DNA of 59,851 nucleotides, counting the filler, from Bipalium vagum (lineage: Eukaryota): the NCBI GenBank assembly GCA_037834085.1. It is 3 parts of 3 records of this genome, joined end to end, with 100 filler letters (N's around TTAATTAATTAA, not from the genome) between each part and the next. Parts side by side here need not be neighbours in the genome. Positions count along the whole stretch, not along the records: positions 1 to 26,966 come from JBBMKC010111138.1; 2 more parts are not named here. One strand, written 5' to 3'. Made by a program: the position numbers and the translations under genes. Below are positions 737 through 32,172 of this stretch, piece by piece (position 1 is the first letter of the stretch; each line of letters opens with the position of its first letter). The notes beneath the pieces are model-generated. The model searched no databases, was not told the origin of the DNA, and was given only the letters and a program-made list of their open reading frames with translations.

Positions 737-836
737 CTGGTTTAACAAGTCCTTTTGATTTTAAATTTTGGCATTGGGACTTTTCATCCTCCGTGATTCC
801 GGGACAATGAGACTTAGCGATAACAAGCCTGTTATT
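737..836 (-). CDS. candidate internal exon, unknown protein
   Basis: tttag acceptor, open frame NNRLVIAKSHCPGITEDEKSQCQNLKSKGLVKP, CAG|gtgtaa donor. Phase-compatible with the candidate exon at 3238-3280. Confidence 0.5.
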
Positions 837-971
837 CTAAATGTAAATTGTATACTAAATATATAATATTAAAATATTTGAAAGTTATTATACAATTTAC
901 TGATCTTAATTTTAGGTGTTCATGTAAACAGAAATAATAAAATTAATACATTAAAACTAATTTTTTGACAA

Positions 972-1703: not shown

Positions 1704-2202
1704 TTGATCTAACGAATCTACTTTTCCTGAATATAATTCACTTTTTTCTTTTTTTAAAAATTATTATTTAAAATAGTATAACAGTAAATATTTGACATAA
1801 ATCGAGATTTGAATTTTCTTATTTCTTTATTATATTCTCTGAAGGTTGACATAAAGAGATTCAATAAATTTACAGTTAAGGATCAAAGTAAATATGCTCT
1901 CTCTTTATTCACCGTTAAACTATATTATGGCTTCAATCATGACGGTTTACATATGTTGATGAAAGGAAAAAATCATAAGATTTTTTTTATTTCTCTAACA
2001 AATCAAAGGAAATGCTGAATCAAAAGATATTGTTAAATTAGTCGATGTTACGAAATCTTATATTTCAAGAGCAGCTTAAATATTTACCAACGATATTATC
2101 AGTTTTAGTAAAATGAAAAGATAATAAATATAAGTAACAATAATACCATTGGTGCTAATGATAAAAACAAACAAAGAAGTATAATAAATAATGATAAAAA
2201 TA

Positions 2203-3046
2203 TCAGGTGTCCAATTAAGTTTTTGCCTTTTTTTTTAAAAAAAGTAAGTCTATTTTTTAAGTATATATTTATTCATCGAAACAGAGTCCTTCACATTGTT
2301 TCCCTTTGCTCCAACTGGGTAATCCTATCTTAATAGAATTCCATAGGTTTACCGCTGAAGAAAGTAGATGCTTCGGATTTTAGATCTGCTTCATTTTCGA
2401 GTGTCCTTTTCTTTAGAGTCTTATTGAGAAAAAAAAACAAATGAAACTCTGTTGCCGAGACATCTGTGTTTAACTTATATCTTTCTTCCAATCTGATGCA
2501 AATTCTTCCTTATTGTTTCTTCGTTGGTATTAAATGTCAATTCAAGTTCTGTAAATGTCAGACTTGAATTAGCCTCAACTGGTTTTTTCAATTTATAATT
2601 GCTCTTGGATACTGGTCTTCTAAGTAGGTTCATAATCTAGATTCTCATTACGTCTGAAATCAATTACAAACTGCTTTTTCTTTTAATGCGTCTTTTACAC
2701 ATGCTAAAAAAGTTTTAGAAAAGTTTCTGAGGCATCAAATCTTAGCTTGTATTCATAAAGTAGACAGGAACGGATGGTTATTTTTTTCGGTCATTTTAAC
2801 TAATAAAAATTATCAAAAAGCAATTATAATATAATATTAGGTTGTCCAGTATGAAATGTCGATTGAAATTTGATTGACTACTAAAAATACGACATTTCAT
2901 ACTGGACAACCTAATATATTTAAGTATAAACAAGAATATTTGATTTAAAGTAATATTTTTAAACAAATTCTTTTGAATAGGAAAAAAAAATAAATTATTC
3001 GATGAAATGTAAATTACAAAATCGCCAGAAACTTAATCGGACACAA
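2203..3046 (-). mobile_element. degenerate mariner with nested MITE
   Basis: TA-tcaggtgtccaattaagttt and aaacttaatcggacac ends; decayed transposase remnants on -. Confidence 0.7.
2837..2914. mobile_element. 78-bp mariner MITE (MADE1-like architecture)
   Basis: Perfect 25-bp TIRs ttaggttgtccagtatgaaatgtcg / cgacatttcatactggacaacctaa, 28-bp spacer, TA on both sides. Confidence 0.92.
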
Positions 3047-3237
3047 TAAAATACGAAACAAATATATAAAGATAATCTAAGAGTAGAATGGAAATTCTTC
3101 CTAAAAGTTTGAACATTAAAAGCCAAATTAATATTTTCCAAATTAATTTTTCTAATATTTTACAATAATCGAACTGTGAAAGTATTAATTTTTTGTGTCA
3201 CATTTATGTAATTATTTTAAGTTTCATGTTAACATAC

Positions 3238-3280
3238 TTTTTGAGTAGTTTCCAAAGACTTTGGTTCTTCTTCTGATTGT
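3238..3280 (-). CDS. candidate 43-nt exon, unknown protein
   Basis: ttcag acceptor and gtatgt donor. One open frame reads QSEEEPKSLETTQK, but all three frames are open. Confidence 0.4.
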
Positions 3281-4100
3281 CTGAACATATAAAATATAAT
3301 TAATTAAATTAAATCAGTGAGAAAGACAGAAAATGAAACGAGTCGGTGCTAATAATTATTGTAATCAGAAAGCAATGAAAAATATATAGAGGAAGAATTA
3401 TGAAATGTTTATTTAAATGCAACAGTTTTCATCTTAGCTAGAATATCAACATAAACAACTTGTGCATTTCATTAATAATTTTTATTTTTAATAATTATAT
3501 TAATTAAGCGTTATTATTAGTTATAGTTATTATATATATATATGTATATATTAAACCAATAAATGAGCATTTATTACTCAAATAAATTAAGATTATCTGA
3601 GACTTTGATACTGAAAAAAACTTTAAACCCGAGAAATGATGAATAAAATAATTTTAAAAATGTGGTTTAATTAGAAAGAGAAATGAAAGATAAATTCGAG
3701 GTTGAGTGGCCACATAACTATTAGGATGAATTTATTTTCCACATTCCTGAATTAATTTTATTTGTTAATTATTAAAAGAGAATGTTATATTATTTTGTAA
3801 ATCTTTTTACTACATTTTGTTAATTCTTTTAAATCATTGCAAATAAATATAAAAGAACCATTCTTTATAATTTAAAGTAGAGTAATATTAAATTACACTT
3901 GAATTTAGTCTAATTAAAATTAACATCAATAAAAAATATTTTTTCAAGCAATTAAAAAGCTCCTAATTCAAATCAATATATTTTAAAAATAATTTCAACA
4001 CGAAGACGAAAAATATGCAAACCGTTTTTTCATAGCAGCCTTCAAATTATATAAAATAATAATAATATTTATTTTAATAATACAATATAAAATTTTTTTA

Positions 4101-4375
4101 TTATATAGCCTTGAGTTTGAATTCAACATTTGCCTGACCACATTTTAAACCCCAACAGTAGTCGGCTAACATAGCGGACATCAATTTCCCTCTATATCTG
4201 CCTTCAACAATTTGATGAAATCTTTTGACCTGATCATCGTTGAAGTCACTACAATTTTTTGGTAAAAATGAGAGAGGACAATGCATCAAACGTAGTTTTA
4301 GTGACAACAGAGAGCCCAGCGTCTTATAAGTTTTAAAAAAGTCATTTACTAACTGCACACAATTCGTTTCCTTGT
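4101..4375 (-). mobile_element. DNA transposase C-terminal remnant, probably Chapaev3-like (CMC)
   Basis: SLKLRLMHCPLSFLPKNCSDFNDDQVKRFHQ..EGRYRGK..AMLADYCW resembles the SLK.HFLHSHLDFFPEN.G..SDE.GERFHQ...RYQG....MLADYCW motif. Family assignment is from memory. Confidence 0.65.
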
Positions 4376-4552
4376 GTTTTCTAGTGTGCTTACCATGGCA
4401 TATTTAAACGTCAAATTCATCTACATCAAGTGAATCTTCAGAACTCATAACTAACAAGTCAAAATTAATAAGACTAATTATAATACATTACAACATTATT
4501 TATTTTTAATTTTATTAAACTTTTAAAACGTTTATGATAAAATATAGGAATC

Positions 4553-4574
4553 TAATAATAATAATAATAATAAC

Positions 4575-4628
<54 letters not shown>
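4553..4628. repeat. (AAT)n microsatellite
   Basis: About 25 near-perfect AAT units. Confidence 0.97.
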
Positions 4629-4629
<1 letters not shown>

Positions 4630-4957
4630 GAAGGATCGGGAAATTGTATTAAATAATACTTTAAATAATATTTTTCTTAAAAATTAACTATGGAAATGAA
4701 AATTAAATATATTTTTAAATATATCCCTTATAAATGGGTATTAAATATTGCAAATATTTATTATTTGAAATAAAATATAATTAAGACTAATACTAATACG
4801 TAAAGCAAAATATTGACTGTCAACCAGGACCACAAATCAGCGAGGAAAAATTCACTTGTAAAATATCAATAAAATCTTTAAATAAATTGCGATAGCTCAG
4901 GGCTGACTGTCTAAAAGACAAAATACTTTACCAAATAAAAAGAAAAGTGACCTATAC

Positions 4958-5367
4958 TCAGTCCTGAGAAATCAAAGGATTAGAAGTCATCGATCTAGAG
5001 CTCACTTCTTCAAAGTTGTCCCAATTGACGGAATTGATTTCGACAGCTTTTATCCAACTGATGTCAAGCAGGTCGATTTTAGTACAAGATGATGGTGTAG
5101 GTACTTTTTCTTCGATTGTCAAACCGGAAAACTGAGCCTGGGGTCCTTTGAAAGGGTCTATTTTTTCTGTCAGCCCTTCCAGTTCCTGCTCCACATGTTG
5201 ATAGAACTGGTTGTGTTGATATTGTTCGAGTCTGGACTTTACTTGTTGTTGATGATGAGGGCCATGGTTAATGAACTCATTACTGACACTGTCTATAAGC
5301 ACTATTGATTGTGTTGGGGAATATTTGCTAGGATTACTGATTGACAGTTCTGTTTCTGACACATTTG
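4958..5367 (-). CDS. unknown gene, exon 3 (last coding exon in this model)
   Basis: cgttag acceptor in phase 1 matches exon 2. Long open frame TNVSETELSISNPSKY...PLISQD then TGA; higher GC than flanks. Confidence 0.7.
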
Positions 5368-5599
5368 CTAACGATCAAAGATAAACAAAGGGTTCAATAT
5401 AAATTTTCAATTGAAAATGCTGATCTCAATTTTTAAAATTTACTGATAGGCGTCTGATTTATTTATTTTGATTTGCGCAATTTTATTTTTTTTAAGGTAA
5501 TATTTTCCAAATATTGTTTAAATAATACTATCGTGTTTTCATACAATAATTTTGAATAGTAAAATAATTTTGCAGGTTAAATTATAATATTTTGCACCA

Positions 5600-6929
5600 T
5601 TTTATGTCTAGTACTTAGATGGCCAATACTATTGACATAACGTAGAACAGTTACAATGAAACAGAAAGACAAATTATCAAATAATTCAATGACGGATTTG
5701 GAGTAGCAGAAATATATGAGATGTCAAATTACAGTCACACAACTGTTGACAGTATCTGTAAAAGAGATAAATCCGCAATAAAATGGCCTTAAAAATATAT
5801 GTACGTTAAAGCAAAAGGATGACACTAAAGTCCGTCCGAAAATTATAATTAAAATGGAGCCAATATGAATGATTTTGATACAAGATTTGAATATAAAGGG
5901 TTTACCATTAAGCAAAGAAAATATTTGGATATTTATAATTCCTTAAGGCAGTCTGATGAGAATCATTCATTTAATGTTGTGTAAATGTTGGTTCAAGAAT
6001 TTAAAAAACTGAAATCAATTACGTGATCTACGTATGAATGGTGAAATGGCAAGAGCTGATAGAAAAGGAACTACAGATTTTGTAAGGAAATTCTAATGGA
6101 AGTTAATGAAATATATTCGTTGTCACAACTAATAAATATGGAAGAGTGTGATTTGTTTTGGAAAAATGACATCAAAAACGGTTTATTGAAAAATCAGGAG
6201 AAACACCACCAAGTCACAAGGCTTCAAAAGAATGATTGACTTTTTTTTAAGAGGCAATTCAAGTGTTAATTTAAAATTGAACCCACTTTAATATATACAC
6301 ACGATAACCTGAGAGCTTTAAAAATGTTAATATAGATAAACTTCGTGTTTATTGGAGAGCAAATAAAAATGCATGAATGGTAAACGCAATATTTTTTGAT
6401 TGGGTGAAAAAAGCCTACTTAAGCAATTAAAGATTTATTCTGAAAAGTACAGCATTCATTTCTCATTTTTAGTTTTACTTGATAATGCACCACGACATTC
6501 AAAACTAGAATCTCTAAATTCTTTATTTGATAGCATTAAGTTTCAGTTTCTCTCATCAAACACAACCTCCATTATGCAACCTATGGATCAGAGTGTGATA
6601 GCAACATTTAACGTTACTACCAAAAAAACCATATCAATCAATTTTAAACCAAAATGTTGATGTGGAAGCACTTAAGTTACTGGTTAAAAATATTCAATCG
6701 TAAATCCAATTAATAATATAGTTCTTTTTAATGTAAGCATGAACCGTCATTGTTACTTCTTCATTGATATTATTGATTACGTTTAAAGGTTTAGTCAAAA
6801 TAAAAATATACTAATATATCCTTATTTGTCATTGTTTAAAAGACTGGAACCCCGTTTTGTATTATTCTCTAATCTTTATTTGTGTAACTTTTTTGGAACG
6901 TATCTCTTACAAAAATCGAGTTCCCCCTG
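5600..6929 (+). mobile_element. degenerate pogo/Tigger element
   Basis: DDE_1-type motifs VLLDNAPRH and FLSSNTTSIMQPMDQSVIATF; CENP-B-like N-terminal remnants; right end cgagttccccctg-TA. Left end approximate. Confidence 0.88.
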
Positions 6930-6997
6930 TACATATATTTGAAAGGATTAATATTGTTTTATAAAATAATTTCAGTTTGAATAGAATAATAACTTAC

Positions 6998-7166
6998 TCA
7001 AGCTGAACTCTTTACTATTGCTCAATGAATTCAAGCAATTTTGATCAAAATTGATTTCACTGGAATAATTTATCGATGTATTTAAGAGTTCCACAGATAT
7101 TTTTGACTTCAAATTAGATGATTCTTCAACCAGAGAACTTATGTCTTTGATGATATATTCACTTTC
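6998..7166 (-). CDS. unknown gene, exon 2
   Basis: aatag acceptor, 169-nt open frame ESEYIIKDISSLVEESSNLKSK...KEFSL, A|gtaagt donor. Phases 0/1 fit the neighbouring exons. Confidence 0.7.
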
Positions 7167-7795
7167 CTATTAGGTTGTTAATTGTTATTACTCTAAATAC
7201 AATCATTAAAGCAGTATTATCATTATTTTTTTTTATTATTTTTTTCATATACATTTGTGCCTTTTAATATAATAACAATTTGTTTTCTCAAATTTAACCT
7301 GACTCGAATTCTAGTAGGTGGTGCAATTAACAACAATTATTAAAGCAATAACGTGTAATTATATCAGTGTAACAGGGTCTATCTTAATAAACCTGTACCC
7401 AATAATTATCGTAAAAGATTTATTTTAAAATTAAATTTTGACTGACTCATTTAATAAAAATCGATTCATTGATTTAATTTTTTCTTAATTATTAATTTTT
7501 AATAGATTCAGTTCAATGTTTATTTGGTATTTTTTTGATGAAGTTTTGATTTTATATGATTAAACTAATCTTAATCGAGTCTGAACGATTTTGTGTTAAT
7601 GTTTCATAAGCTCATTATAATTTAAAGCTTAATATTTTATAATTGTTCCACCAAACGTTAGGTTCAATTCATTCTTTCTGATAACTTAGCTTTTTATGTA
7701 AAGTTGCCCACCTCTTACATATATATTTTAACAAAAATAACCTAAATTATAAATAAAAATAATAACAAAATTATTTATTTTAACTAATCATATTT

Positions 7796-8560
7796 TCGGT
7801 TGTTCAAAATAAAACGGTTTTTAAAAAGCGGTTTATTATCAATCGATAAAAATGTCCACCGTTCAATATTTATTATATGAGTTCTTTTTTTTCGAATCAT
7901 TCTCGTCTTTAAAATTCTGCGAAATCTAAGCTATGGTATAGTATCTCCCCTATTTTTTCCGAAATGTACTTCTTAGACACATTTCCTCAGCTCAGATTTG
8001 GTTTGGGTTGAATCTTCCACCAGTAATGATTTCAAATCTTTATCTTCAAATAATTTTGAAGATCCCAGGGTGAATTGCTTCTTGATGTAGGTCCAAAGAG
8101 TTGTGGTTCGCCATGTTAGTGGTTGCTGAAAAAAAATTGTTACCTTCCATAATAATTTATTTATTCAAACCGTTTTTCTGTTTTGTTCAATTTGCTATTA
8201 AAACAAATGAAATTTTAATACTTTTCACATATAAAATTTTCGCATTTAATTCGAATATATTGAGCTTTAAAATTTATACTTGTTTTTATTAAAAATTTAA
8301 TTTATACTTTTATTTAATTATTAAAATCTTTTAGCTCAATATACTGCAAATTAAATTAAAAAATTAAATATGTTAATCAGATATTTTTAGATTCTCACAG
8401 TAAGCCTTCCGATATCTTTGCCTTTGGTATCGTAATTGCACTTTTCAAATCAACAAAACCAATCATAACTTGTCATAATGACAACATTCTTACAACCAAT
8501 TGTTAAAGTATGCAGACATTTTTGAATTGATGTATTATTTAAACAACGATTTAATAAATA
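7796..8560 (-). mobile_element. mariner fragments
   Basis: TIR-like ttcggttgttcaaaataaaacggt; on -, YDWFC*FEKCNYDTKGKDIGR resembles WF.RFKSGNFDLED..RSGRP. Confidence 0.6.
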
Positions 8561-9165
8561 AAGATAATCGATAATATTTTTTATGTATATTCAATTTTAA
8601 GAATGTATACAAAAGACAATCTGATTTTTTTCTTGTCGTTCAATAAAATGTCAGAGAAAAAAGTTATTTATTCATTTCATGAAGTTATTTTTTCATCCAC
8701 GGGTTTTTACATTTATTCACATTAGTCCCTATTCGACTTAGATTAATTAAGAATTTCCTCTAACACTTCGTCGACACAAGATAAACTGTTGAATGGTCAC
8801 AAAGTTCATATTTTTTGATTACTTTTGAAATATTATTAAACTACAGAGATATTCATGGAAGAACGTGAAACCTAAAATAGTCGATGAAGTTATTTCTGTC
8901 ACATAGTAAGATTTCACTGTTTCATTTGAAGTCAAAGGTCATGATCATTTGAAAATAAATATTTTTTGTTTATTATCATTTTGCTTTTGGCGTTAATAAT
9001 TTGTCAAGTCCGCGGTCATTCTTTGTATTGATTATATTAGAAGTGAATAAAATTCTAGATCGAGTGCAACTTTATTAAGAAAATTTTTAAAAAAATGGAA
9101 AATAGTTAAGAAAAATAATTTGTTAATATTAAGACTTATAGATCAATAAAATATCATATATGAAC

Positions 9166-9369
9166 CTGTTCACTGGCATCTGCAAGACATTCAGGGGAAC
9201 AGTAGTTCAATGAAAAGCAACGATTGACTGTACATCTCGTAGAACAGGGATTCTCCGATTCGTGAGTGGTTTTGGCAGATAAAAGAGGTTCTCTGTGACC
9301 AGAAGATTCTTTTTCCAAATTCATCTGTACTTTTTGTGGCACAAATAGGGGTGATCGCTTTTCAATCAT
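9166..9369 (-). CDS. unknown gene, exon 1 (about 260-aa Ser/Glu-rich product in a 3-exon model)
   Basis: ORF MIEKRSPLFVPQ...CSTRCTVNRCFSLNYCSPECLADASEQ ending CAG|gttcat in phase 0. No recognisable domain; true start uncertain. Confidence 0.62.
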
Positions 9370-9589
9370 ATCTAAGTTTTTCGGAATTTGGTTAAAAATA
9401 TTATCTTATTTGGAAGAAAGTATTTTAATGAGGACACAAAAACAATATAAATAATATACAATCCCTCATTTTAAATTTCATATAAAGTTAGGTATAATAT
9501 ATATTCACTATCATTAACGACAGTCATCTGACAAATTTCCATCGAAAACTAGATACCATCAGCAAAAGTTTTATCCTACTCTTCATATA

Positions 9590-10257
9590 CAGGGTAGCTC
9601 AAAAGTAACTTAATGATTTTAAATAATATTAAAATGTAAATATTCCAGACAATTATTTATTTTGAATATTACATCAGATCAGTCCATAAGTTCGTGCGTA
9701 TTAATAAATATTATATAAATATAAAAATAAAAAGCAAATCGAAATCGATATGAAACATTTATTCATGGAAATAATTACCATTGTTTTCTACAATCTTTTT
9801 CCACCTGTCAGGAAGTTTTTTAAAACCATCTGCATAAAATGACAAAGGTTTGAAGAATCAAAGATATAATGCAATACCCACGAATTTATGGACTGACCTG
9901 ATACATAAACAATAATTCACAGAGGTCTTTATTTCTGGTTTGCTACGGTCTTCCCAATCTTTACAAATCGTTTACGGAGCCCTGACCTCGGAAACGTTTA
10001 ATTAATTGCATAATCATAAAGGCTGTTGGTGGCTTCTTAACATTGAAATGTTGGCAATATTTCCGTTGAGTTCGGATTATTGAATTATTTTTTTGAAACT
10101 AAAATTCCACGATTTTCGTTCGTTCAGATATTGTATATCTTTGTGACATTAATTTCTTGGAATCCTTCTTATATCTACAATTATTTCAAAATAAATAAAT
10201 ATTGATTTTATTTTTTATGAATTTTTAAAATCATTAAGTTACTTTTGCGCCACTCTG
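9590..10257 (-). mobile_element. non-autonomous Tc1/mariner element with a nested mariner deletion derivative (9674-9901)
   Basis: Outer TIRs cagggtagctcaaaagtaacttaatgattttaaa / tttaaaatcattaagttacttttgcgccactctg with TA flanks. Inner TIRs tcagatcagtccataagttcgtg / cacgaatttatggactgacctga. Confidence 0.85.
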
Positions 10258-10699
10258 TATAAAATATACAGTTAAATAAAACAATTTTTAAAATAAAACT
10301 GGGTTTTTATTGAAAGCATTTTATCAAGGTTGTTTTTTATTAGTTTTATCAAAAATTTCTTCAAACGTATATCTTTCTCTTTCTTTTTTTTAGAATTTAA
10401 AATATTTCTTCTTAAATTTATATTGGTTTATTTTTTGAAAGTTTTTATTTTTATATTATATTATTAATTTTTATCACACAAAAGTGTATTCTATTCTTAA
10501 TTTCCTTTCAGAATTTTTTAAAGAATATTTAAAAAGTTGGTTACAGATAAAACATATATTGTGCTTTCTTATTTTCTGTAATTTATTTTCATTTAGTTCA
10601 CAATAAATAATAAATAATAAATAATAGATAATAATAAGATTACCTAGTGAAAAGAAGTTTCAAAATTCTACTAGGTTTTATGAAAAGTTATTCTTAATA

Positions 10700-11590
10700 T
10701 TCTTTTATCAAAATAAATATTTTTAATAACAACTATCAAAAATGTGATATCATTGATATATCAATGTCAAACTATATTTGTAAGTATTGTTTAAATAAAC
10801 ACATCAATGTATTTATTTAAATTTATAATTATAGTAAAATAAATACAGAAAAATTGGAATTCGAGGTTTGATCCGTCATTATTAGAAAAGGGGATTTACT
10901 ATTGCTGCCACCACTATGAGTATTTATGATATTGAAATCTTACAGATGACCACTTTTCCCGTCGTTTTAGTAATTCAGTTGAAACATAAGTCTATTTCTT
11001 TAATCAAGGGAAAAATAAGTATTGGATGTTACATGACCAATCTCCAGCAGCATGTCTCCGAAAGAGTCGATTTTGAAAAAAGATCTGTTTGGTGGAATTT
11101 TAAAGGTGAGATTCATTTTAAGTTTTTATTATAATATCGGGCTATGAATGCTGGTCTCTGATTTGAATAGCTTGACAGAATCAAATTTTGAGAATAATTT
11201 CCAAGTTTAATCAATAAAACCGATTTCTCTATCAGTTTGACAATGTGTAACCTCATTTGAGATAGATATACTACACTTAATGGAATTAAACTCTTGCCTT
11301 ATCCTTCTTATAGTCTATAACTTGGACCCTCAGGCTTTGCACTTTTTTAGAGGACAGTGGTTTCTTAATGTTGAAGAAGTCAAGAAATTTCACAAGAAGT
11401 TCTTTTCTTCCAAGTGTTAAGAATGGTACAGTGAATAAATCATAAAAATTTGCCATAATATGGTAAAATGTTGCACGTAATAACGGTTCTTATTTTAAAA
11501 TTAATAAATTATATTTTTTCTTATTTTTTTATATATAATTGCAGTATGTTTTGCGTTAATTTTGAAATCAAGGATATTTTTGTTAACCTT
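10700..11590 (+). mobile_element. degenerate mariner
   Basis: Remnants of SVWWNFKGEIHF, LLPYPSYSL*LGPS (YSPDLAPSD) and C-terminal motifs. Ends approximate. Confidence 0.75.
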
Positions 11591-11738
11591 TTTAATACAA
11601 TATTTTCCAGTATAGTTTGATTTTATGTGGCTTTTGAAATAGTTAGGAAAATTTGAAATTATTTATTTTTATTAAATGTGAATAATTTTTTTATTAATAA
11701 ATAATAATATTTTATCTAATCAACGTGTCAATTTTTAG

Positions 11739-11987
11739 CAATATGTGATATTAAAGGGGCAATATATGATGGAAGTAAATTTCTTAATAGTAATTTGTCC
11801 AGAATGTAACGAGATTGCGAAAATTGAAAACCTTTTCTCAAACGTATATAGCCATATTAACACATATGAAACTTTTCTGGGTAATCTTATAAGCACCAGA
11901 TGTGCAGGCATGATAATTGATCAAAGTGACAAATTCATTTTGGCTTGGAATAAGATTAATGAAGACATACAAAATATTTTTATGAAG
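11739..11987 (+). CDS. NIT-domain guanylyl cyclase, exon 4 (second half of NIT domain)
   Basis: tttttag acceptor, 249-nt phase 0-0 exon QYVILKGQYMME...AWNKINEDIQNIFMK, AAG|gtaaaa donor. Confidence 0.8.
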
Positions 11988-12314
11988 GTAAAAAAATTAA
12001 ACTTTTAACATAAATGTCTTTATTTATATTTCATTGATAATAATAGATTTATTGGAAAAACTTTAATATTTTAGTGATTTTTTGTTTTGCCACTTATTAT
12101 AATTATTGATTATTGTATTTCTTAACTAATTAAACTTTTTTACATATGTATTATAAAATATAGAATGAATAATAATTATTATAATTATATAATTATACAG
12201 TTTATTTAATAATAAACATTTTAACTTGAGATATATCAGAAATTCTACGGTAATGGTATTATGAATTAACCAGATAAATGGTGAAAGGTTATCGAAAATA
12301 GTTGTTTGTTTCTA

Positions 12315-12863
12315 TAGTGCGCCACAAATTAATTGCCGCACCTTGTAAAATCAAGAAATCTTCATTATTTTCAAACTGTAATTAATTTTTCATAAAATTG
12401 ATGAAAGTACAAGATATAAGAACTTATTTGAACAGCATTGTATTATTTAAATTAAGTTGTAATTTAAGCCTGTTGGTTCGGAAGGTATATGATGGTGGAA
12501 AGCTGTTGGGAAGACATGGATCAATAAATCCTGGAAAATTTAGTAATTTCAATGCCAAATAGAATTTATGAGACTATTTATGCTCACGGCAGCTCAATAA
12601 ACTATAAGAAAATTATTGGTACATTTTTGTGAATAAAAATCGACTTTTTGGAAATTGCGGCAATTAATTCGTGTCGGTTTTTTCTTGATATTTTTATTTT
12701 TTGCTTAATATAGTTGGTTATATTAAGAATTTTTCAATTATTTTTTTACATTTGCATTAAGACACTAATAGCTACATTGTGCAAATATTTTGAAAATTTT
12801 GAAATCTTTGGACAAAAGATAATGTCCTTTTTGTAAATGCGACAATTAATTTGTGGCGTACTG
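12315..12863 (+). mobile_element. Tc1-like deletion derivative in cyclase intron
   Basis: TIRs tagtgcgccacaaattaattgccgca / tgcgacaattaatttgtggcgtactg with TA flanks; internal SMPNRIYETIYAHG Tc1 C-terminus. Confidence 0.85.
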
Positions 12864-13115
12864 TACTTCAAAACGTCAGAAATTGCTTAGACCATGTAAA
12901 ATATTGAATAACAAAATTACTTTTGTAAGTCTAAAGTTTATAAAAGGTCTGGTATTTTGATTATTCCATTTTATCTTCTCAAAATAACAGCTCAATTTCA
13001 AAAATTATATTTTCAATGTCTTTTAAAGGATGAATATGTTTGACAGAATAATTAAAAATAATTGGTAAACATAAAATTTTATATATTTTGGAATTAATTT
13101 AATTTACGAATGTAG

Positions 13116-13328
13116 CTCAAGAATATAACAGAAACACAAAGTTTAAAGAATTTGGAGAATCTATTGTGGAATGACAAAACAAAGTTACTGTTATTTGGAT
13201 TTGCTATATTAACTTTCGGAATCTGTAGCTATTTTGTCTTACGGTCTTACTGGTGTTCAATCAAGATTTTCGAAAATAATATCTATAAATTTTCAGAGCA
13301 CTTTAAAATAAAATCCCTGGAACTAGAA
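13116..13328 (+). CDS. NIT-domain guanylyl cyclase, exon 5 (second TM helix, start of coiled coil)
   Basis: tgtag acceptor, 213 nt phase 0-0, TM LLLFGFAILTFGICSYFVL then KIKSLELE|gtaata. Confidence 0.85.
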
Positions 13329-14460
13329 GTAATATAAATTATTTTTTAAAAAACTTTGTATTATCTTTAATATGAAACATAAATATATATATATTTTGTG
13401 CTCGTTGAAAACGAGTCTTTTTAATTGCTTTAATAATAACCTTACGAACTCAAATTTTAAAAAGAGATATCTAGATGAAATTTTGCTTGTCCACCAGAAA
13501 AATAGGGTACTTTTTTTGAATGGTAGATCTACTTAACAATATCAGCTAATTAAGTTTCATTTTTTGAATGAATAAAATTTCTTGAATGCACTGCTTTATT
13601 ATGATATGTTAACCTTAACATTTATTAAGTCAAAAGTAATGATTTAATAATTTTTTTATCAACCAATTAAGTGTCATACTATTTCATATATTCAAAATTT
13701 TTAAGGATTTTGAAAACCATAAGTGTGCTAAAAATTACTTTGAAGGGCTTCTAATTACAAAGAAAGTTTCTAAAGTCTAATGTACCATAAATATATAATA
13801 TGATGAGGCTAATCAGACCTGGTGAAATTTTTTATTATTTTTCAAATATTTAAAAAGTATGAATGAAATTTTAAAAATAAACTTATTTTTAAAATTTAAT
13901 AAAAAAAGGAATTTCCAGGTCTGAGAAAATTTTTAAAATATTATTTGTTTTGTTACTTAATAAATCTATTCAAAAAACTGACTTGTATTTCTGATTATAA
14001 ACCGATTGATATTAACATATAATATTCGTTCAATGCCACAGACTAAGAGAAAATTATGCGAAACGAACTATCCGAAGAAAATATAAAAATTATTATTTGA
14101 ATTATATCCAAATTTATTTAAAATTATGATTAAAATAAAAATAATAAAACAAAAAAATAAGATTTCATCTATGGACTCTAGACGCCTTTATTCAAGTGCC
14201 TAATATCAATATCCTTTTCCTTAGACAAATAAACACAATATTAATAAATCTTTTTTTCTTATTTAAAAAATTTTGATTATAATTTTGAATTTACAGAGAG
14301 AACGACAGGGATTTTTTGCAATTTTTGATTTATGATCATACACAATTCATGTGAAAATAAGTTAAAATGGAGAGATGACATTTTTTATTAAATTCAATTC
14401 AAATTAATTTACATAAATACTTTTATTAAAAAAATTATTATTATTTTATTCAAAAATAAG

Positions 14461-14660
14461 AACGAAAAGAACAAAACTGATAATATTATAAATTCAATAT
14501 TTCCGAAAAATATTTTCGAGCAAATGAGGGCTGGCAAGGATGTGATAGCTCAACATTACGAATGCGTTACGGTTTACTTTTCTGATATTGTTTCATTTAC
14601 AACGATTGCATCTAAACTAAACCCATTGGAGGTTATCGAAATGCTCAGTGACTTGTATAC
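14461..14660 (+). CDS. guanylyl cyclase, exon 6 (signalling helix, first catalytic Asp)
   Basis: NEKNKTDNIINSIFPKNIFEQM...VTVYFSDIVSFTTIAS..PLEVIEMLSDLYT; gtatga donor. Confidence 0.93.
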
Positions 14661-14705
14661 GTATGATTTAATATTTGTTGTTTCTCAATTATATGAGCTG
14701 ATCAG

Positions 14706-14815
14706 AACATTTGATAACTGTTTAAATAAATATGATGTCTACAAAATCGAGACCATCGGAGATGCCTATTTAGTTGTGAGCGGACTTCCAGTTCAAAATG
14801 GAATATCACATGCTG
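14706..14815 (+). CDS. guanylyl cyclase, exon 7
   Basis: TFDNCLNKYDVYKIETIGDAYLVVSGLP, the class III cyclase signature with the guanine-selecting Glu; GT-AG boundaries. Confidence 0.95.
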
Positions 14816-14858
14816 GTAAAGATTTCAAATTGAAGATAGTTTATTTATTTATTTTCAG

Positions 14859-14963
14859 AAGAAATTTGTAATCTAAGTTTATCTGTTAGAGACGTGATGA
14901 AGGAATTTAGTCACAAAAAAATTACAAAAAATACTTTAAAATTGCGAATTGGTATTCATTCAG
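14859..14963 (+). CDS. guanylyl cyclase, exon 8
   Basis: ttttcag acceptor; EICNLSLSVRDVMKEF...LKLRIGIHSG; phase 1-1. Confidence 0.93.
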
Positions 14964-15129
14964 GTCGATATTCATTATACTTTTATATTATTATTAGTAG
15001 TAGTTTTCATTATTTTTTCTGTTCTATTTATAAATCAGACTTACAATGCCATTACTGCATTATTTGACGATTATCATATATCATATTTCTTTTTTGATCA
15101 TAAAATATTTTTTGATGAGGTTAACCATT

Positions 15130-15960
15130 CATTAATTAGTTTGAATAAATATAAAACTCATTGAGCATTTGGAAATTTATTTATATTATAAAGCTGTTTT
15201 AATAAAGTAATTTGATGTATTAAAATTGATTTAATTTTTGAAATAATACATCTTTAGAAAATGATTGATCAAAGATATAGAGTGCTGGTTTCAAGCAAAT
15301 TAAACCAGACGATGAGTCACATCGTAATTCATGTCAAGCATTCGGAGATGAAGTTCCAGTATTACGTCAATGTCAGCGATGGTTTCGGCGTTTCAAAGAT
15401 GATGATGAACGTCCTGAAGACGAAAAACATCAACGTAATCAGCAAGTTGTGGACAACGAAGAATTAAAAGAAAACATTAAGTTGGATTCCTGCCAAACTA
15501 TTCGTGAGCGTGCAGAAAATTTTGGTTGCACTCAGTACTATAGAAATCTTCCTAGATGCAATCGGAAAATTAAACAGAAACTGAAAATGAGTTCTGCAAT
15601 CTCAAGACATAGCGGGTGAACAATGCCCGAATTCTTCTTCGCGAAACTATGAACAGCGGATTCCTTAACTATTTTGAAATGTCAGATGAAAAATGGATGT
15701 CATAAAATAATACAAGAAAACGACAGTGGATAACCGTTGGAGAACAACAAAAATCGACTTCAAAGCTAAATAATCGTGGATTCAAGGTCATATTGTTTGT
15801 ATGATGAATGGCAAAGATTCTGTATATTTCGAAATGCCTGTTAATGGTCAGCGGAGAATACAGGCCTATACACATAACAAATCAGCTGTGTGGACCAATC
15901 TTTGCACCTTCAAATGAAAGGCATTTTTGCTTCGGTTCTACAATCATATCTGTCTGAAAA
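15130..15960 (+). mobile_element. degenerate mariner in cyclase intron
   Basis: AFGDEVPVLRQCQRWFRRFKDDDERPED, MSDEKWMS and KVILFV*W-like remnants. Confidence 0.85.
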
Positions 15961-16429
15961 GATGCGGAGATAAAACATTCAAAGGAAGAATCCACAAGCA
16001 ATTTTGTATTTAATTAATATTAAGTTTATAAAAATTTTTGTTGATGCCTGAAATTTAAATTTTATTTTATCATCATTTTTCTTATTTGACCATCATCTCT
16101 AACATGATCTTTTTATTTTGATCACGATTGTCAAGAAAAAAATAATCTTTAAAACTTCATAATAAGGACATGTTTGTTGAAAATTAGTTTTTAAAAAAAT
16201 GTATTCCATTAAATAATTTAATGAATAGTTATCCATGAAAAATTGTCAATCTTTCTTGCACGGATGTAAAACCTGAGGTTGTCATCTTTAATTTTAATTG
16301 TAAACACAAAAGGTATATATTGAAAATATTGGATGACAAGAATCTGAAATGTAAATACATAAGTGAACAAATATTAAAATGAACATTTATGTTTACATTT
16401 GTAACTGAGATGCTCTAAGTAATGTTAAA

Positions 16430-17190
16430 GTAAATACAATTCGGTTCAATTCAAGATACAATTTAATATTACTTTTTCGGAAATCAAAAACAGCACGTGA
16501 TCTTTTTAACGATTGGAAATCAAGCTAAACTTTCTCAATTAGTACTGTGAAGCGCAATCTGAGAAGGTATGGCTTGTTCAGACAAATTTCAGCGAACAAA
16601 CCTTATTTAAATAAGCGACATATCAAGAATCGCTTAAAGTGATGCAGAGATTATAGCAAACTGCTTCCTTCTTTTTGGAATGAGGTGATTTTTACAGATT
16701 AAAACCGGACAGAACTGTTCTCTAAAAGAAGAGAATATGTCCGCAGACCACAAGGATTCGGGTATAATCCAAAATATACTACAAAAAATGTTAAATTTAG
16801 AGAAAATAGTTTGATGGTTTATGGCGCAATCGAAGAAGATGACATCAGAGTTTTCATAAGGTGTCTGGATTGGATGAATTCTGATGCCTACTAGGATGTA
16901 TTGAAGAAAGGGTTTTTCTAAAAGACAGAACTCCATGCTATATGTCAAGATTTGTGACTTCATTTTTGGAAAAGTCCAAGTTATACGTACTGTGTGATTG
17001 ACCGACTCAATCACTAGATCTGAAAGCCAGAGTTGCTATGTGTAGGCCGGCAAATATTGAGGTACTGTTGAGGATTTCGGAGGAGTAGTGGGCGATGATT
17101 CCACCATCTAAGTTTAAAAATCTTTATGAAAGCATACCAAGCAGGTTCAAGAGGTAAGTTAAAAAAAGGTATGAATACAAGATATTAATT
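16430..17190 (+). mobile_element. degenerate Tc1-like transposase in cyclase intron
   Basis: STVKRNLRRYGLF..ANKPYLNKRHIKNRL, LMVYGAI and LYESIPSR remnants with frameshifts. Confidence 0.85.
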
Positions 17191-17740
17191 TCGATTATCT
17201 TAATTTTTTATGAGGTTGACTGTTTCTTAAAATGTGTTTGGTCATTTAAAATGTAAATAACAGATGCTTTACTGATGTTTTAGTCTTTTATTCAAAATGA
17301 CTTAAAAATAATGTTTTTGTAAAAACGGTTTTTCTAAATTTACAAAATAATAATAGATAATGTACTTCAACCCTCCAAACACCCGTGAGAAAAGGCTCTA
17401 CACAAGCAACTGATTGGACCAAAAGTGTGTGATCTACCATACGTAGCTAAAATAAGTTACCGGGGACGTGTACCGAGAACAATTATCACGCCTGAGCCAG
17501 ACATTGAGCGAAAAAAGACCAGACTATGAAAAAAAGCAGCATTAAGTGATACTACATTAATTTCTTGTCAATCTAATAAATTATGTATTATTTCTTTATT
17601 AATTATTAACACATCATATTTCTTTCCACTAGCGATTCAAACAATTCTGATTTAATCGATTTATTAAATGACAATGACAAATGACAAAAATAATGTTTTT
17701 TTATTATTTAAGCCAGTAAATTAAAATAATATTATTCTAG

Positions 17741-17839
17741 GAAAATGTGTTGCAGGGGTTGTAGGAAGAAAAAGTCCAAAATATTGTTTATTTGGAGAAA
17801 CAATTAGAATTGTTGAACTTTTAGAGTCCACAAGTGAAG
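17741..17839 (+). CDS. guanylyl cyclase, exon 9
   Basis: GKCVAGVVGRKSPKYCLFGETIRIVELLESTSE; ttctag acceptor and gtaagt donor. Confidence 0.95.
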
Positions 17840-18737
17840 GTAAGTATTCTTAAGCACTATTAGTATATACAAAACTAGTATGTTCAAAAACAAGTTTTAG
17901 ATGTTTGTCTCGGCTTTGGCTTCGACGTTTTTGCAAATATTATAGCTCTTGATTATCATCTTCACTGCATATTTTTCCATGATTGTTTTAATTTCTGCTA
18001 TTTTAAAATCTAATTTCCCGAGTGTTGGTAGTTTGACGGAATCAACGATGCTCTGGCTCCGATTATAAATGTTCTGCTCTCATAGCACCATGTTCTTCCG
18101 AGTTAAGATTCATCTTCTTCCAGTAAAATCTGAAATGTTTGTTTATTTTGCTCCGTCATTACCTATGATAGAGACCACTAATTCAAAGAGGAATTTGACG
18201 TCAATAATAAGGTTTTTTAAGTTTCTTGTTAACTAATCGTGTATCAGAAATTAGGTTTTGACATGAAAAGAAATTATGTCGTCATTTCATATTCATTATC
18301 AAATTATTAATAATTTTATTATAAATAATTTTCTATTCTTTTTCTGGTAAATTTTCCGAAAAATTATTTCATTTTCCTAGAACCAATCAAAAAAGCTTTT
18401 TATTGTTAAAAAAAACTTCAATCAACAATATACTATCTCTTTTGATTCAGCACCTGTCACATATAAAATATTTATAAGATTAAATTTTGTGGACTTATCC
18501 ATTTTTGAAAAATTAGGATCCAATGAATATGGATATCTTCATTTGAATCAATCATCCTGCAATTCAAAGAATGTTGCAATAAATTGAAAATAAGTAAAAA
18601 TCAGACGAAGCGGGTGTAGTATCAAATCTCATTTAATAGCCAATATAGGTCTTACTTGAAGTCATAAACCTAAAAATAAGTCTCAATAGTATTTAACAAG
18701 TACTGTTTTAAGTTAATATGATTTTATAATTATATAG

Positions 18738-18829
18738 AAATGAAAATCCAAACGAGTTATACTACAGTAAATCTGGTGAAGCATAGAAAATTATTCGACT
18801 TCACTTATCGTGGGGATGTATCTATACCG
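18738..18829 (+). CDS. guanylyl cyclase, exon 10
   Basis: MKIQTSYTTVNLV..FDFTYRGDVSIP; tatag acceptor and gtaagt donor; phase 1-0. Confidence 0.9.
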
Positions 18830-19904
18830 GTAAGTATATATAATAATTTATTCATTAAGTTATTATTATTATTTATTAATTATGAATTGCATTTTCTGAA
18901 GTTCAATTTTGATCACATGATTGTAACCGTCTTTATCTTACATTTTCAAAAAACATGTTACACTTCAGAACAGGTACGGAAATAACTTTTTTGGTTAATT
19001 ACAGGGTTGCAGAAACCTAAGGAAAATTTTATTTATTATGTTTTTTTGAAGAATAAAAATTTTTAACGAATGTAATTTTAAACTGTTATCTTATTTTGAG
19101 ACATTTTTAGTTAATTTTAAATATTGAGATGCATAGAAATTTAAAAAGTCATACAATAATCCATTATTGACATCTTCCGAGTCAAGAATTTTTGAATTTC
19201 TCAACATTCCTTTCAAAATCTTTCCTTCTTTATCTTAAAATAATTATCTTATACCACGGGTATTTCTATTGACTATGTATGGACCCACGTATCTTTCCTG
19301 TCCTTAGAGTGATCTACATTCCAAAGTTTGAAAACCCCTGTGAATCCACCACGATGTCATGAATGGTGGAACGGCTAAATTTCACTCTGGTAACAATGTG
19401 CTTGTGAGACATTTTGCTTTTGATGAGGAGATTGGTGTTTTTGATTTGATGTTTTGGTTTTCGCTTCTCCTTGAATAATAATATATAAAAACCATATGTA
19501 TTTATTTTAAAATGTCGAACTTTGAAAGTTATGTTGCTTTTTAAAAATTTGGTTTAAAATAATATGATTCAATCAATAATAAGACTTTATATATCTAATT
19601 TGACACTTTTTATTATATTTAGAGAAAAATAACTGTCCGGATGGTATTCACTTGTACCTTAATAAAAATTTTATTCTTGTCTTTTTTGTTGAAAATTGTT
19701 CTATTTAGTAGATGAAAGATTCTTATATAATGTATCAAAATCTGTAGTTGATAGGATTTTTTAGCAGCTATTAGACTTTAATTGCAACAATGTAAAACAT
19801 CCGGACAGATTTTTGATCATACAGTAATGTTCAATTTTATCATCTTCATAAAACTAAAAAATTATCTTTTCTAAATTTAAAGTAGTTATACATATGAGAT
19901 ATTA

Positions 19905-20584
19905 CAGATTTTTTCATTTAATTTAGACAAAACAATTATTAATCTTGTTTAGCAAGACTTATATTTGAGATAATATTTATAGATGAAGTTGGTTTTAACG
20001 TTTCGATGCGATCAAGGGAGAGATGGTCTTTGAAGGGTTCACCGGCAGTACTAAATGTCCCAGGATTAAGATCAAGAAACATCTCCTAAAGCTGTGCAAT
20101 AAATGTTGATGGACTATTATACTTTGAAAATCAAGTCAAAGTCCATAATACAGAAAGTTATATATCTTTTCTTGATAACCCCCATGTGAAGCTACAAATT
20201 TGTGGTGTTGTTAAGGCAGGTTTTGTCATGGATAATTTTTCATTTCACCGTTCTTGACTTATTGTCGCAAAAATACGAGAACTTGGGTATCGATGTGTTT
20301 ATCTACCTTATTCTCCCTTTCTAAACCCGATTGAGGAGATGTTTGCAAATTGGAAAGAATTGGCTCAAAGATCAGCTCCTACAAATTCATTTGATTTAAT
20401 AAAATTGATTGAAGATATATCAATCAATATATATATGATTGTTTAGGTTTTTATAAACATATGATAAAATATTTGTAAAGATGTGAAGGAAAAGAATTGA
20501 TCATGGATTAAAAAAATTTCGAAATAAATGTTGTTATTTGTCTAAATTTAATGAACATTTGAATAAATTAAATGAAAAACCCTG
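19905..20584 (+). mobile_element. IS630-like Tc1/mariner (DDxE) deletion derivative
   Basis: IFIDEVGFN...VMDNFSFH...YLPYSPFLNPIEEMFANWK with stops; TIRs cagattttttcatttaattta / taaattaaatgaaaaaccctg. Confidence 0.88.
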
Positions 20585-20691
20585 CAAGTTAATAAATATT
20601 TAAGAGATTTACCAATTATAAATTTAGTAATTATTTAATAAATAAAACATGTTAAATAAAAGAATTTTATAATGAAAATATTATATTTTAG

Positions 20692-20742
20692 GATAAAGGA
20701 TCCATTAGGACTTATTGGCTGGAAGGAAAAATGCACACTTGA
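20692..20742 (+). CDS. guanylyl cyclase, terminal exon 11
   Basis: ttttag acceptor; DKGSIRTYWLEGKMHT*, matching KGKG.M.TYWL. Confidence 0.92.
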   Translation, partial: DKGSIRTYWLEGKMHT

Positions 20743-23972: not shown

Positions 23973-24246
23973 ATGAAGTTCAATAAAAACAATAAAGTTT
24001 TTAGTGAAGCAACTCTGAGAAATAGTTCTAATTTGTCTTACTTTTGGACAACGAATAAAAATGATATTGATCCGGAAATAAAGACATTATTAGACCAAAG
24101 TCGATCAAGCCATATTATTGAATTTTTGAAATGTTTTTTTGTGGCCCTGATACCGTTAGTCATAACAATTGCTTTCATAACAGTATTTACAACGAAAAGC
24201 TTTGAAAAGATCCATGGCTCGTACCAGTCGACATGTCAAATTAATC
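23973..24246 (+). CDS. NIT-domain guanylyl cyclase, exon 1 (N-tail plus first TM helix)
   Basis: aaaaATG; TM FFVALIPLVITIAFITVF; C|gtgagt donor in phase 1; ATTGG (CCAAT) box at 23923. Confidence 0.85.
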
Positions 24247-24641
24247 GTGAGTTCAAAAAATAAATAATTATTCATAAAAAAATAATATTGATTTTTAAAT
24301 TTTTTAGGAAAAATTATATTTTTAAAAAAATCATTTAATTTTTCCTTGTTATATCTAAAATTTGTATAATTTCTTGATAATTATTATTTTAAGAAAAGAT
24401 TACATTAAAAGATTACGAATTTCTAAAAAATATGAATGAATTAGTTAAATTTAAATAAATGTTAAATATTATTATGATTTTTAAAATGTTAAATCTCACT
24501 AATAATACATCTCTGACATGAAGTATTAGTGAAGTATATTTTATTTTATTTTATTAACATCTTTTTCCATTTCTACATTTCTTGTTATAAATTAACGATT
24601 TATTATGTTTTTCTTAATTATATTTATTTTATTCCTTACAG

Positions 24642-24897
24642 AGGCCATGGAGATAATTGCAGCTGTCCAAGCTCTTCAGGTGGAAAGAGGTTTGTCTACT
24701 CAATTTATAGCATCAAATCGATCAATTGATTCTCAAAGTATGCTAACTTCCCGGAATGACACTAACCTAAAATTTACATTAATAAAAAAATGGATCAATG
24801 AATCATATTTTACTAATTTTTACAATCTAACTGTTATACGTGCGTCAACGGATTTAATAAATATTTTGAATAGGTATAGAAATCAAATTGATGACAA
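24642..24897 (+). CDS. NIT-domain guanylyl cyclase, exon 2 (NIT domain start)
   Basis: ttacag acceptor; AAVQALQVERGLS matches the NIT motif LVH.LQ.ERG.S; LNRYRNQIDD. Confidence 0.9.
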
Positions 24898-24954
24898 GTA
24901 CTTTACGTTAAAAAGAAATCAGAGAAATAAATAAATGTTTTAATTTATTTTTAG

Positions 24955-25177
24955 AAATTTCAATCTTTCCATTATTAATAATATCAATTATTACACCACC
25001 CTTCATGAAAGTTTTATAAACTTCATATCTGATATGGATTTGGGAGATTATTTTAAGAACTGGCAGTACTTAATTGGACTCAGTAATCTTGTAATGATCA
25101 CAGATACCCTTGGTATCCAAAGAGCTTTAGGTAGCGCATTATTTATGAATTGTGATCTTATTTCTGACCTGAAATCT
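24955..25177 (+). CDS. NIT-domain guanylyl cyclase, exon 3
   Basis: INYYTTLHESF...DTLGIQRALGSALF (second NIT G.ERA.G motif); TCT|gtaagt donor in phase 0. Confidence 0.9.
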
Positions 25178-26002
25178 GTAAGTTCTTTTCATTAAAATAA
25201 TTTATTAATTAAATTTTTATTAATAAAAGTTAAAAGTGCTTATGTTATAACTGAAAATTTTACGTATACTTTTATTAATAATTATTTATATCTTTATATT
25301 TTTATAAATATGAATAGACTTTGTGGGTGTTGTATAAAACCAAAATTTAACACGATTACAAGAAGTTTCTAGACATATAATCCCAAGAAAAAATCCCCTC
25401 GGAATAAAATACCTGAAGTATAAAAATACCATTCATAGTGAAAGGAGATTCATTGTTAGACCTTATATCTTCATATGTTCACATGGAAGTATAAGTATTT
25501 AAATTTAAAATTAAATTGATAATAGTGTTAAGTTCCTAAAAGTGACTGAATTTAGGTTACAAATAACGATAATGGTCTTTTAGGTATATATAAGCGTATA
25601 TGACTATCAGAAGGATTTATGAAGTGTAATTCGGAACCGTAAATAAAAAAGGATAAATGAAAACAAATCGAATCGAATACAAATATTTTTATTTGCAAAA
25701 ATGTGATTTTACAAGGGGGGTTTAAATGAGAATCATTAAATCCTTTCAAAGTTATCCTGTAACATGTGGAAAAGCCCTGAGATGATTTACCAACTCTAAC
25801 TGTTGTGTAAATCACAAACCAAAAGAAAAGTATGGAGAATGTAAAAACAAAAAATGAAGGTAATACTATTCAACAGTGATTACCGGAAAATTGTGGATTT
25901 TAAGATAATTTAAAATGGTCTGTGCAAACTATAATAATTTACTAAATGTAATAAATAATGAGTTAAATAATAATAATGAAAAATATTAATAATAATAATA
26001 AT

Positions 26003-26966: not shown

Positions 26967-27066
26967 NNNNNNNNNNNNNNNNNNNNNNNNNNNNNNNNNN
27001 NNNNNNNNNNTTAATTAATTAANNNNNNNNNNNNNNNNNNNNNNNNNNNNNNNNNNNNNNNNNNNN
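26967..27066. other. artificial contig spacer (44 N + TTAATTAATTAA + 44 N)
   Basis: Exactly 100 nt; the core has stops in all six frames; identical copy at 43465. Confidence 0.97.
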
Positions 27067-31889: not shown

Positions 31890-31946
31890 CACATAATTAA
31901 ATTATCAAGATAAATTAGCATCAATTTACCCATTAAGCACAGAGAA

Positions 31947-32172
31947 ATGCAAGCCAAAACGTATTCGGCTCTATCGACAATTCTGTCTTTAATTGCTATT
32001 TCTTCATCGGATAAGTTTCAAGTTGTCGACCATGGTCCCTGTCTCACGAAGGGTCTCCATTATTGTCAGGAACGTGTGAAGAATAGTATTTGTAGTAAAG
32101 TTGCCAATAAATGCTTTTGTCAATCGAATTTTGTGGCTATAAGGGAAAAAGATGCGATCACTTGTAAACCAC
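31947..32172 (+). CDS. secreted/membrane Cys-rich (EB/EGF-like module) protein, exon 1
   Basis: Signal-peptide-like ALSTILSLIAISSS; six Cys in GPC...YC...SIC...KCFC...TC; C|gtaagt donor. Later exons not seen before the contig end. Confidence 0.85.

Follow-up and report, generated by a model that had tools for sequence, protein, structure and literature searches.

A predicted alpha-like guanylyl cyclase subunit of the NIT receptor type in Bipalium vagum

A class III guanylyl-type cyclase of Bipalium vagum (assembly GCA_037834085.1) is described here, in which one side of the catalytic site is preserved and most of the other is rewritten. The cyclase half of this gene, called part A below, retains the three residues of the Asp side (two metal-binding Asp and the beta5 Arg) and has lost four of the six residues of the opposite side (Asn, Ser, Arg and Lys), where Glu and Cys remain. 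We consider it reasonably likely that part A is an alpha-like subunit, predicted to donate the Asp residues to a heterodimeric cyclase. Judging from its residues, the protein would probably have to pair with another cyclase in order to produce cGMP.

The gene appears to have the architecture of the NIT-GCs, recently described and widespread invertebrate receptors reported to link NO or nitrite to cGMP without the use of heme, with 12-15 paralogs per species (PMC7400543, bioRxiv 10.1101/2023.08.02.551600). A member of this family reduced to a half-site would imply the existence of NIT-GC heterodimers and hence of combinatorial sensors, and would repeat the alpha/beta split of soluble guanylyl cyclase (sGC) on a different NO sensor. 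This state is new to the NIT-GC family and apparently unreported. The principle itself is already known, half-site subunits being established in sGC, adenylyl cyclase, NeoR and ODR-1/DAF-11.

The cyclase half and its catalytic residues

The window, i.e. the whole stretch of 59,851 nucleotides that was analysed, is AT-rich (GC = 0.26), intron-bearing and holds numerous transposon relics. It is interrupted by gaps at 26967-27066 and 43465-43564, each made of two 44-N runs flanking the same 12-base linker; this linker being identical in both, the N runs do not define the gap sizes. Part A consists of eight exons on the plus strand (11739-20742) that join into a single open frame of 372 codons, the seven introns all being GT-AG:

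11739..11987, plus strand: first exon found, phase-0 start, probable C-terminal half of the NIT ectodomain
13116..13328, plus strand: second transmembrane helix, then the first part of the signalling helix; colinear with the NIT-GC profile
14461..14660, plus strand: coiled coil and start of the cyclase, with the first metal-binding Asp (14584-14586)
14706..14815, plus strand: guanine-specifying Glu (14749-14751) and second Asp (14761-14763)
14859..14963, plus strand: retained beta5 Arg (14945-14947), a residue of the Asp-donor side
17741..17839, plus strand: main finding, bounded by AG and GT; Cys kept, helix alpha4 rewritten
18738..18829, plus strand: ends with Pro (18827-18829) at the position of the catalytic Lys
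20692..20742, plus strand: last exon, DKG...TYWL and TGA stop

The assignment to the class III guanylyl-type cyclases rests on PF00211 matches above cut-off in two exons (E 1.6e-21 and 6.4e-7) and on the joint presence of the Glu and the Cys. The stronger match, Guanylate_cyc in Pfam, belongs to exon 14461..14660, whose best PDB match is NPR1, and the transmembrane exon 13116..13328 reaches a hydropathy peak of 2.32 over 19 residues. The most upstream exon is less readily identified: taken alone, 11739..11987 has no Pfam match, all its matches in the ESM Atlas stay below 0.9, and it is weakly recognisable against two Mytilus NIT-GCs (z 1.2-1.4 only). Against the matching part of the Lingula NIT-GC P0029 it scores z 3.7, a value reached by 2 of 2000 shuffles.

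Several features accompany this gene in the window. The intron 14661-14705 is only 45 nt long, in frame and stop-free, with a weak pyrimidine tract; if it were retained, the cyclase would gain 15 residues in the stretch from the first Asp to the Glu. Broken transposase relics (mariner-, pogo- and Tc1/IS630-like; HTH_48, DDE_1, DDE_3) are found at 15281-15619, 6400-6660 and 20258-20446, two of them within introns of the cyclase gene. Elsewhere, a plus-strand frame at 31941-32207 opens with a signal-peptide-like stretch followed by a Cys-rich module and has no Pfam match. Another at 39565-39858 (plus strand), also devoid of Pfam match, ends with GLW...C, which we take to be a claudin/PMP22-type signature. 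A hormone receptor domain (PF02793, E 2.7e-4, under the cut-off) at 47395-47643 on the minus strand corresponds to an exon of a secretin-type GPCR.

The exon 17741-17839 translates as G-KCVAGVVGRKSPKYCLFGETIRIVELLESTSE and its catalytic helix reads FGETIRIVELLES, where relatives have FGDTVNTASRMES. The Asn position is occupied by Arg (codon AGA, 17806-17808) and the Arg position by Leu (codon CTT, 17818-17820). Asn and Arg are both present in 116 of the 118 domain alignments spanning the two positions (126 alignments to 120 fetched relatives), and in a wider set of 262 proteins both Asp are found together with Asn and Arg in 225 of the 246 fully scored domains. Across the 18829/20692 junction, KGKG has become PDKG, so that the phosphate-binding Lys is replaced by Pro; the second Lys of the motif is kept, two residues past the lost one. 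The Asp of FSDIV, the Glu of KIET, the Asp of IGDAY, the beta5 Arg and the Cys of YCLF (17785-17787) are intact. These results bear out what the initial annotation had claimed on the loss of Asn and Arg, on KGKG and on the conservation of both Asp, the Glu and the Cys. Its list of changes was right as far as it went and fell short of three others: GDT to GET at 17797-17799, the alpha4 Ser to Glu at 17815-17817, and PRY to PKY.

Codon for codon, the helix lines up with its canonical counterpart, and at the six invariant columns that deviate at least nine base changes are needed (D>E 1, N>R 2, A>V 1, S>E 2, R>L 1, M>L 2), which are too numerous for a base-call error. A compensated frameshift was ruled out in turn, NTASRM being absent from the other two frames of the exon. 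No second, intact copy of this exon was found among the 2708 six-frame pieces of the window.

The NIT ectodomain and the order of the exons

Pfam NIT (PF08376) matches the window only at 24644-24898 and 24956-25180, downstream of the stop codon of part A. Three exons, designated part B, were delineated in this region, beginning 3.2 kb after that stop:

23973..24246, plus strand: exon 1, with ATG, cytoplasmic N-terminus and first transmembrane helix
24642..24897, plus strand: exon 2, start of the NIT domain with the first conserved Arg (QVERG)
24955..25177, plus strand: exon 3, middle of the NIT domain with the second conserved Arg (IQRALG), ending at a phase-0 GT donor

Exon 1 has a hydropathy of 2.76, and the alignment to the NIT-GC profile starts there at position 47. 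Exon 2 is identified by Pfam NIT above cut-off (E 1.4e-5) and by NIT clusters of the Atlas (0.92-0.93), and exon 3 by Pfam NIT (E 2.5e-4) and the subfamily profile (E 2.6e-13). The Arg column of exon 2 is common to two bacterial NIT proteins, and both arginines of part B fall on Arg columns of P0029, P0232 and these two proteins. From this conservation and a legend in PMC7400543 we infer that they form the ligand-binding pair. Part B, P0029, P0232 and the two bacterial rows have the second Arg, which is missing in five other animal NIT-GCs that were aligned; this division may point to two classes of ligand within the family.

The two parts complement each other. Part A holds the second transmembrane helix and the weakly supported C-terminal half of the NIT domain, and part B the first transmembrane helix and the N-terminal half of the domain. 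Placed in the order B then A, they are colinear with positions 47-605 of a 655-position profile combining Pfam-NIT proteins with kinase-less GCs, with no gap or overlap at the junction, where the phase-0 donor of part B meets the phase-0 acceptor of part A. The B+A protein aligns in one piece with Lingula P0029 (31%, E 5e-90), and the nearest ectodomain matches among the fetched proteins come from Lingula and Mytilus (26-31% identity). The transmembrane exon joins the coiled-coil exon in frame, leaving no kinase-homology domain between membrane and cyclase, and the longest plus-strand frame in the 1132-nt intron separating these exons has 67 codons. In phylogenetic analysis, a clade of the part A cyclase with P0029/P0232/P0269 has a p-AU of 0.62 and a log-likelihood 5 above the free quick tree, and a clade with all 14 NIT rows a p-AU of 0.13; the branch is long and no set is supported. 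The tree is thus compatible with a part A cyclase of the same subfamily as the part B ectodomain, and establishes no clade. The NIT-GC label of the initial annotation is borne out by this architecture, and depends in part on exons that are out of order. Its description of open exons with clean splicing holds for the eight exons and seven GT-AG introns of part A; the gene as a whole is incomplete in the window, the first transmembrane and NIT exons lying 3' of the stop.

No other candidate for the missing halves was detected. A profile of three NIT-GCs, built without any sequence of the window, retrieved the part B exons (E 2.6e-13 and 2.2e-7) and nothing below E 1 elsewhere in the window. In the six-frame pieces of 1-11738, this profile recognised nothing that could serve as the 5' half of part A. 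At 10463-10540 there is a weak match (E 0.06), which was rejected as a 5' exon on account of its stops. No cyclase exon or other 3' half for part B was found in 25178-59851. Each exon is present in one copy in the window, all of them open. On the minus strand, a GC-richer frame of 138 codons at 4958-5374, which matches nothing in Pfam and has a good acceptor near 5367, may be the last exon of a gene of which 9154-9405 (minus strand) is a possible first exon; if real, this gene occupies the place expected for the 5' half of part A.

The likeliest causes of this order are a mis-ordered assembly or two truncated tandem paralogs. We regard as evenly balanced the chances that one gene, or near-identical tandem copies, was shuffled by the assembly. 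Counting against a mis-order, the flanks share no repeats and no N gap separates part A from part B: the repeats needed for a simple swap are absent from the three flanks beyond two minor matches, one of 35 nt and one weak and translated, both between the two upstream pieces. No end-to-end overlap was evidenced in the first contig, where only a contig-end 13-mer is repeated internally. That two tandem paralogs were each cut at the same long intron, one by the window edge and the other by the gap at 26967, is plausible at somewhat under an even chance. Part B would then belong to a neighbour whose cyclase lies outside the view, and would be a natural partner candidate; RGC genes are reported to cluster with NeoR (PMC8815786). 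A real permutation of the gene halves in the genome appears improbable. More specific still, and highly improbable, is a permuted NIT-GC whose 3' half (11739-20742) precedes its 5' half (23973-25177) and which would be trans-spliced or work as two chains. Such a gene would require either that separate transcripts be trans-spliced at the phase-0 intron of the NIT domain or that the sensor be made of two chains; if true, its product would be the first alpha-like subunit known from a heterodimeric membrane cyclase sensing nitrite/NO, and would parallel soluble guanylyl cyclase with a separate origin.

Subunit roles and alternative explanations

In human sGC, the alpha subunit is reported to supply D486, D530 and R574 and the beta subunit R552 and K593, neither homodimer being active (PMC3591389). 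In the GTP-bound rhodopsin cyclase RhGC, the triphosphate is bound by one chain, and Arg577, Lys612, the Asn/Ser of alpha4 and the Glu/Cys pair come from its partner (PMC7384201). NeoR, which carries Glu and Cys without NxxxR, is described as inactive alone and as the Asp donor to the sole working site of the RGC1/NeoR dimer, whose mirror site is an inhibitory GTP site (PMC12264004). A class III site is built from two chains, the first giving the two Mg-binding Asp and the phosphate-binding Arg, and the second the base-reading Glu/Cys, the alpha4 Asn/Ser/Arg and the Lys. An active homodimer combines both Asp, NxxxR and Lys in one chain, and part A instead bears N>R, S>E, R>L and K>P. The pattern that it does show, with the Asp pair and the beta5 Arg present and NxxxR and Lys lost, is that of an Asp donor. 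Because of this attribution of residues to subunits, and of the NeoR example, an inactive homodimer and an alpha-like role can be predicted for part A. The initial annotation had proposed both, and this much is supported; the sequence gives no distinction between a heterodimer subunit and a dead regulator.

From the established chemistry, no site of a part A homodimer would contain the transition-state Arg. If the coiled coil brought part A together with a NIT-GC or receptor GC of the ordinary kind, one working site would arise, to which part A would contribute Asp-Asp-Arg. In the mirror site, which would receive only Glu and Cys from part A, GTP could be bound without turnover and act as a brake, by analogy with RGC1/NeoR. 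Should part B be the 5' half of part A, both NIT arginines are kept and a nitrite, nitrate or NO signal could reach the partner; should it represent a tandem paralog, it would be the first partner candidate. No beta-type partner, and no cyclase other than part A, was found among the six-frame pieces of the window. Two observations go against the alpha-like reading: part A has kept the Glu and Cys of the side that is otherwise lost, and the gene, with exons misplaced or missing in the window, may fail to be expressed at full length.

The change of GDT to GET provides a further indication. It was surveyed in 369 domains scored from 381 of the 387 fetched proteins. Glu occupies this position in 24 of them, all 24 without Asn and/or Arg, and in none of the 330 domains having both; 15 further domains have lost Asn and/or Arg without this Glu. 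Of the 24, 16 came from a motif-primed search. The rows are related and do not represent independent events, so that p-values overstate the association. In unprimed searches, Glu is found in 8/14 N/R-deficient domains versus 0/230 intact ones. In nine tandem two-domain cyclases with both halves scored, including one of Dictyostelium purpureum, the GE-bearing half has both Asp, and the opposite half has N and R without the Asp. The GET mark thus appears to go with working Asp-donor halves, which would support this role for part A, and it offers a handy flag for such halves across class III cyclases. Glu-bearing domains fall at several places on the tree, and a single clade of the part A domain with the single-domain half-site GCs P0154, P0171, P0179 and P0152 is rejected (p-AU 0.007), which fits a convergent origin.

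The pattern of loss looks selected rather than decayed. Sixty columns of the domain are near-invariant (at least 95% conserved among 221 canonical domains); part A differs at 14 of them, and the canonical domains at 0-7 (n=221). In the alpha4 window, six of seven invariant columns differ (hypergeometric 4e-4, for a window picked after seeing the data). Ahead of the PRY motif, 6/41 also differ, four of these being mild hydrophobic swaps in the coiled coil. In a simulation of neutral decay (substitutions only, with an assumed AT bias), the frame and splice sites survived in 628/5000 runs with 4 changed columns, 86/5000 with 8 and 1/5000 with 14. Since neutral decay so rarely keeps them, the bulk of the change probably arose under a protected frame; a late pseudogenisation is compatible with the survival of 628 frames in 5000 at four changed columns. 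The whole domain lies on a long branch, so that relaxed constraint would contribute, and its nearest relative among the matches has at most 58% identity, with no close orthologue.

These data also weigh on the rival explanations. An open frame and a selected-looking pattern suit any maintained role, including that of a catalytically dead regulator or decoy, selected to dampen its partners by halving the sites per dimer or to carry a non-catalytic signal, its Asp serving the fold or nucleotide binding. There is a precedent in RGC1/NeoR, whose catalytic domains are reported to have a maximal rate half that of the RGC1 homodimer (PMC12264004). Nothing would oblige a pure decoy to retain the Asp side, however, and part A keeps 3/3 of its residues for 4/6 lost opposite, together with a GE mark common to working Asp-donor halves; we give this explanation a modest chance. 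A small chance is left to a recent pseudogene or otherwise broken copy, severed at the intron that interrupts the NIT domain (duplication followed by reciprocal loss is one possible route) and no longer expressed at full length, its half-site pattern being the relic of an earlier selected state. The absence of a 5' half from 1-11738 and of a 3' half from 25178-59851, the lack of an N gap between A and B, and the transposon relics filling introns and flanks all agree with such a break. It is opposed by the integrity of the 11 exons, all open with canonical splice sites, and by clustered changes that neutral decay does not readily produce, and a draft assembly with four N runs and repeats at contig ends is a simpler cause of the exon order.

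An active homodimer with shifted residues was also considered. The Arg at 17806-17808 (i-4, one helix turn from the lost Arg) and the second Lys of KGKG, two residues past the lost one, could reach the phosphates in place of the canonical pair, and Glu and Cys are retained as an active GC needs. Against it, an Arg at the ribose-facing Asn site and a Glu at the Ser should crowd the site, Arg is absent from this position in all of the other 24 domains listed as GE-type, and the cyclase Asn and Arg are cited as essential (PMC12264004). Such an enzyme is very improbable, and the alpha-like Asp donor remains the preferred reading.

Comparison with known systems

The B+A protein shares with the NIT-GCs the succession of transmembrane helix, NIT domain, transmembrane helix, coiled coil and cyclase, without kinase domain. 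It departs from them by the order of its exons in the window and by the loss of Asn, Ser, Arg and Lys, whereas both Asp and N+R are kept in 26/26 scored NIT-GC domains, drawn from a strict set of 34 NIT-bearing proteins that includes several mosquito near-duplicates and five bacterial chemoreceptors without cyclase. No family-wide alpha class is thus apparent in these 26 domains. NIT-GC1 of Platynereis is reported to produce cGMP when expressed alone (bioRxiv 10.1101/2023.08.02.551600). A half-site profile search gave no protein with Pfam NIT in the best 120 of 4943 matches (8000 candidates scored), a result of little weight, and a search with the Lingula ectodomain for further NIT-GCs returned only itself and five bacterial chemoreceptors. 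The Anopheles entries P0001-P0006 combine NIT with two cyclase domains, both intact where scored, and are possibly fused gene models of tandem NIT-GCs. The accessible text of the literature, including PMC7400543, PMC1435932 and the Platynereis preprint, mentions no degenerate or heterodimeric NIT-GC, and the supplementary alignments of the preprint may hold some. In these texts the word 'heterodimer' is absent from the preprint and occurs once in the placozoan paper (PMC7400543), about nNOS.

Like part A, NeoR unites a sensor and a cyclase in one membrane protein and has retained the Asp pair, Glu and Cys without NxxxR. It differs by its rhodopsin sensor and its fungal origin (chytrid; RGC1/NeoR, RGC2/NeoR), and its partner and activity have been measured, where part A is known from its sequence. 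The sGC alpha subunit and the C1 domain of adenylyl cyclase donate two Asp and one Arg, as part A would do, and sGC alpha also keeps Glu and Cys. It is soluble and bears H-NOX/PAS domains, in contrast to the transmembrane part A. Orthology was rejected, a transmembrane helix standing directly ahead of the coiled coil; because part A has no sGC-type N-terminus, sGC alpha is a parallel and not an orthologue.

In Caenorhabditis elegans, each of ODR-1 and DAF-11 is reported to supply part of one catalytic site (PMC5225109, PMC8045692), the formal proof of their heterodimer in native cells being described as pending (PMC8045692). They share with the role proposed for part A the condition of animal membrane GCs with a split site, and differ by their kinase-homology type and their ectodomain. 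The Asp are likewise kept and Asn and/or Arg lost in several other half-site GCs: the mutually unrelated receptor GCs P0154 (tardigrade), P0044/P0141 (cephalopod-labelled), P0326, P0179, P0171 and P0152, with Clytia also represented, and the tandem P0250 of Dictyostelium purpureum with its relatives. GDT is often changed to GET, GEN or GES in these receptor and tandem GCs, which differ from the B+A protein by the lack of a NIT domain. Receptor GCs of the alpha-like kind may be more frequent than one would expect from the nematode pair.
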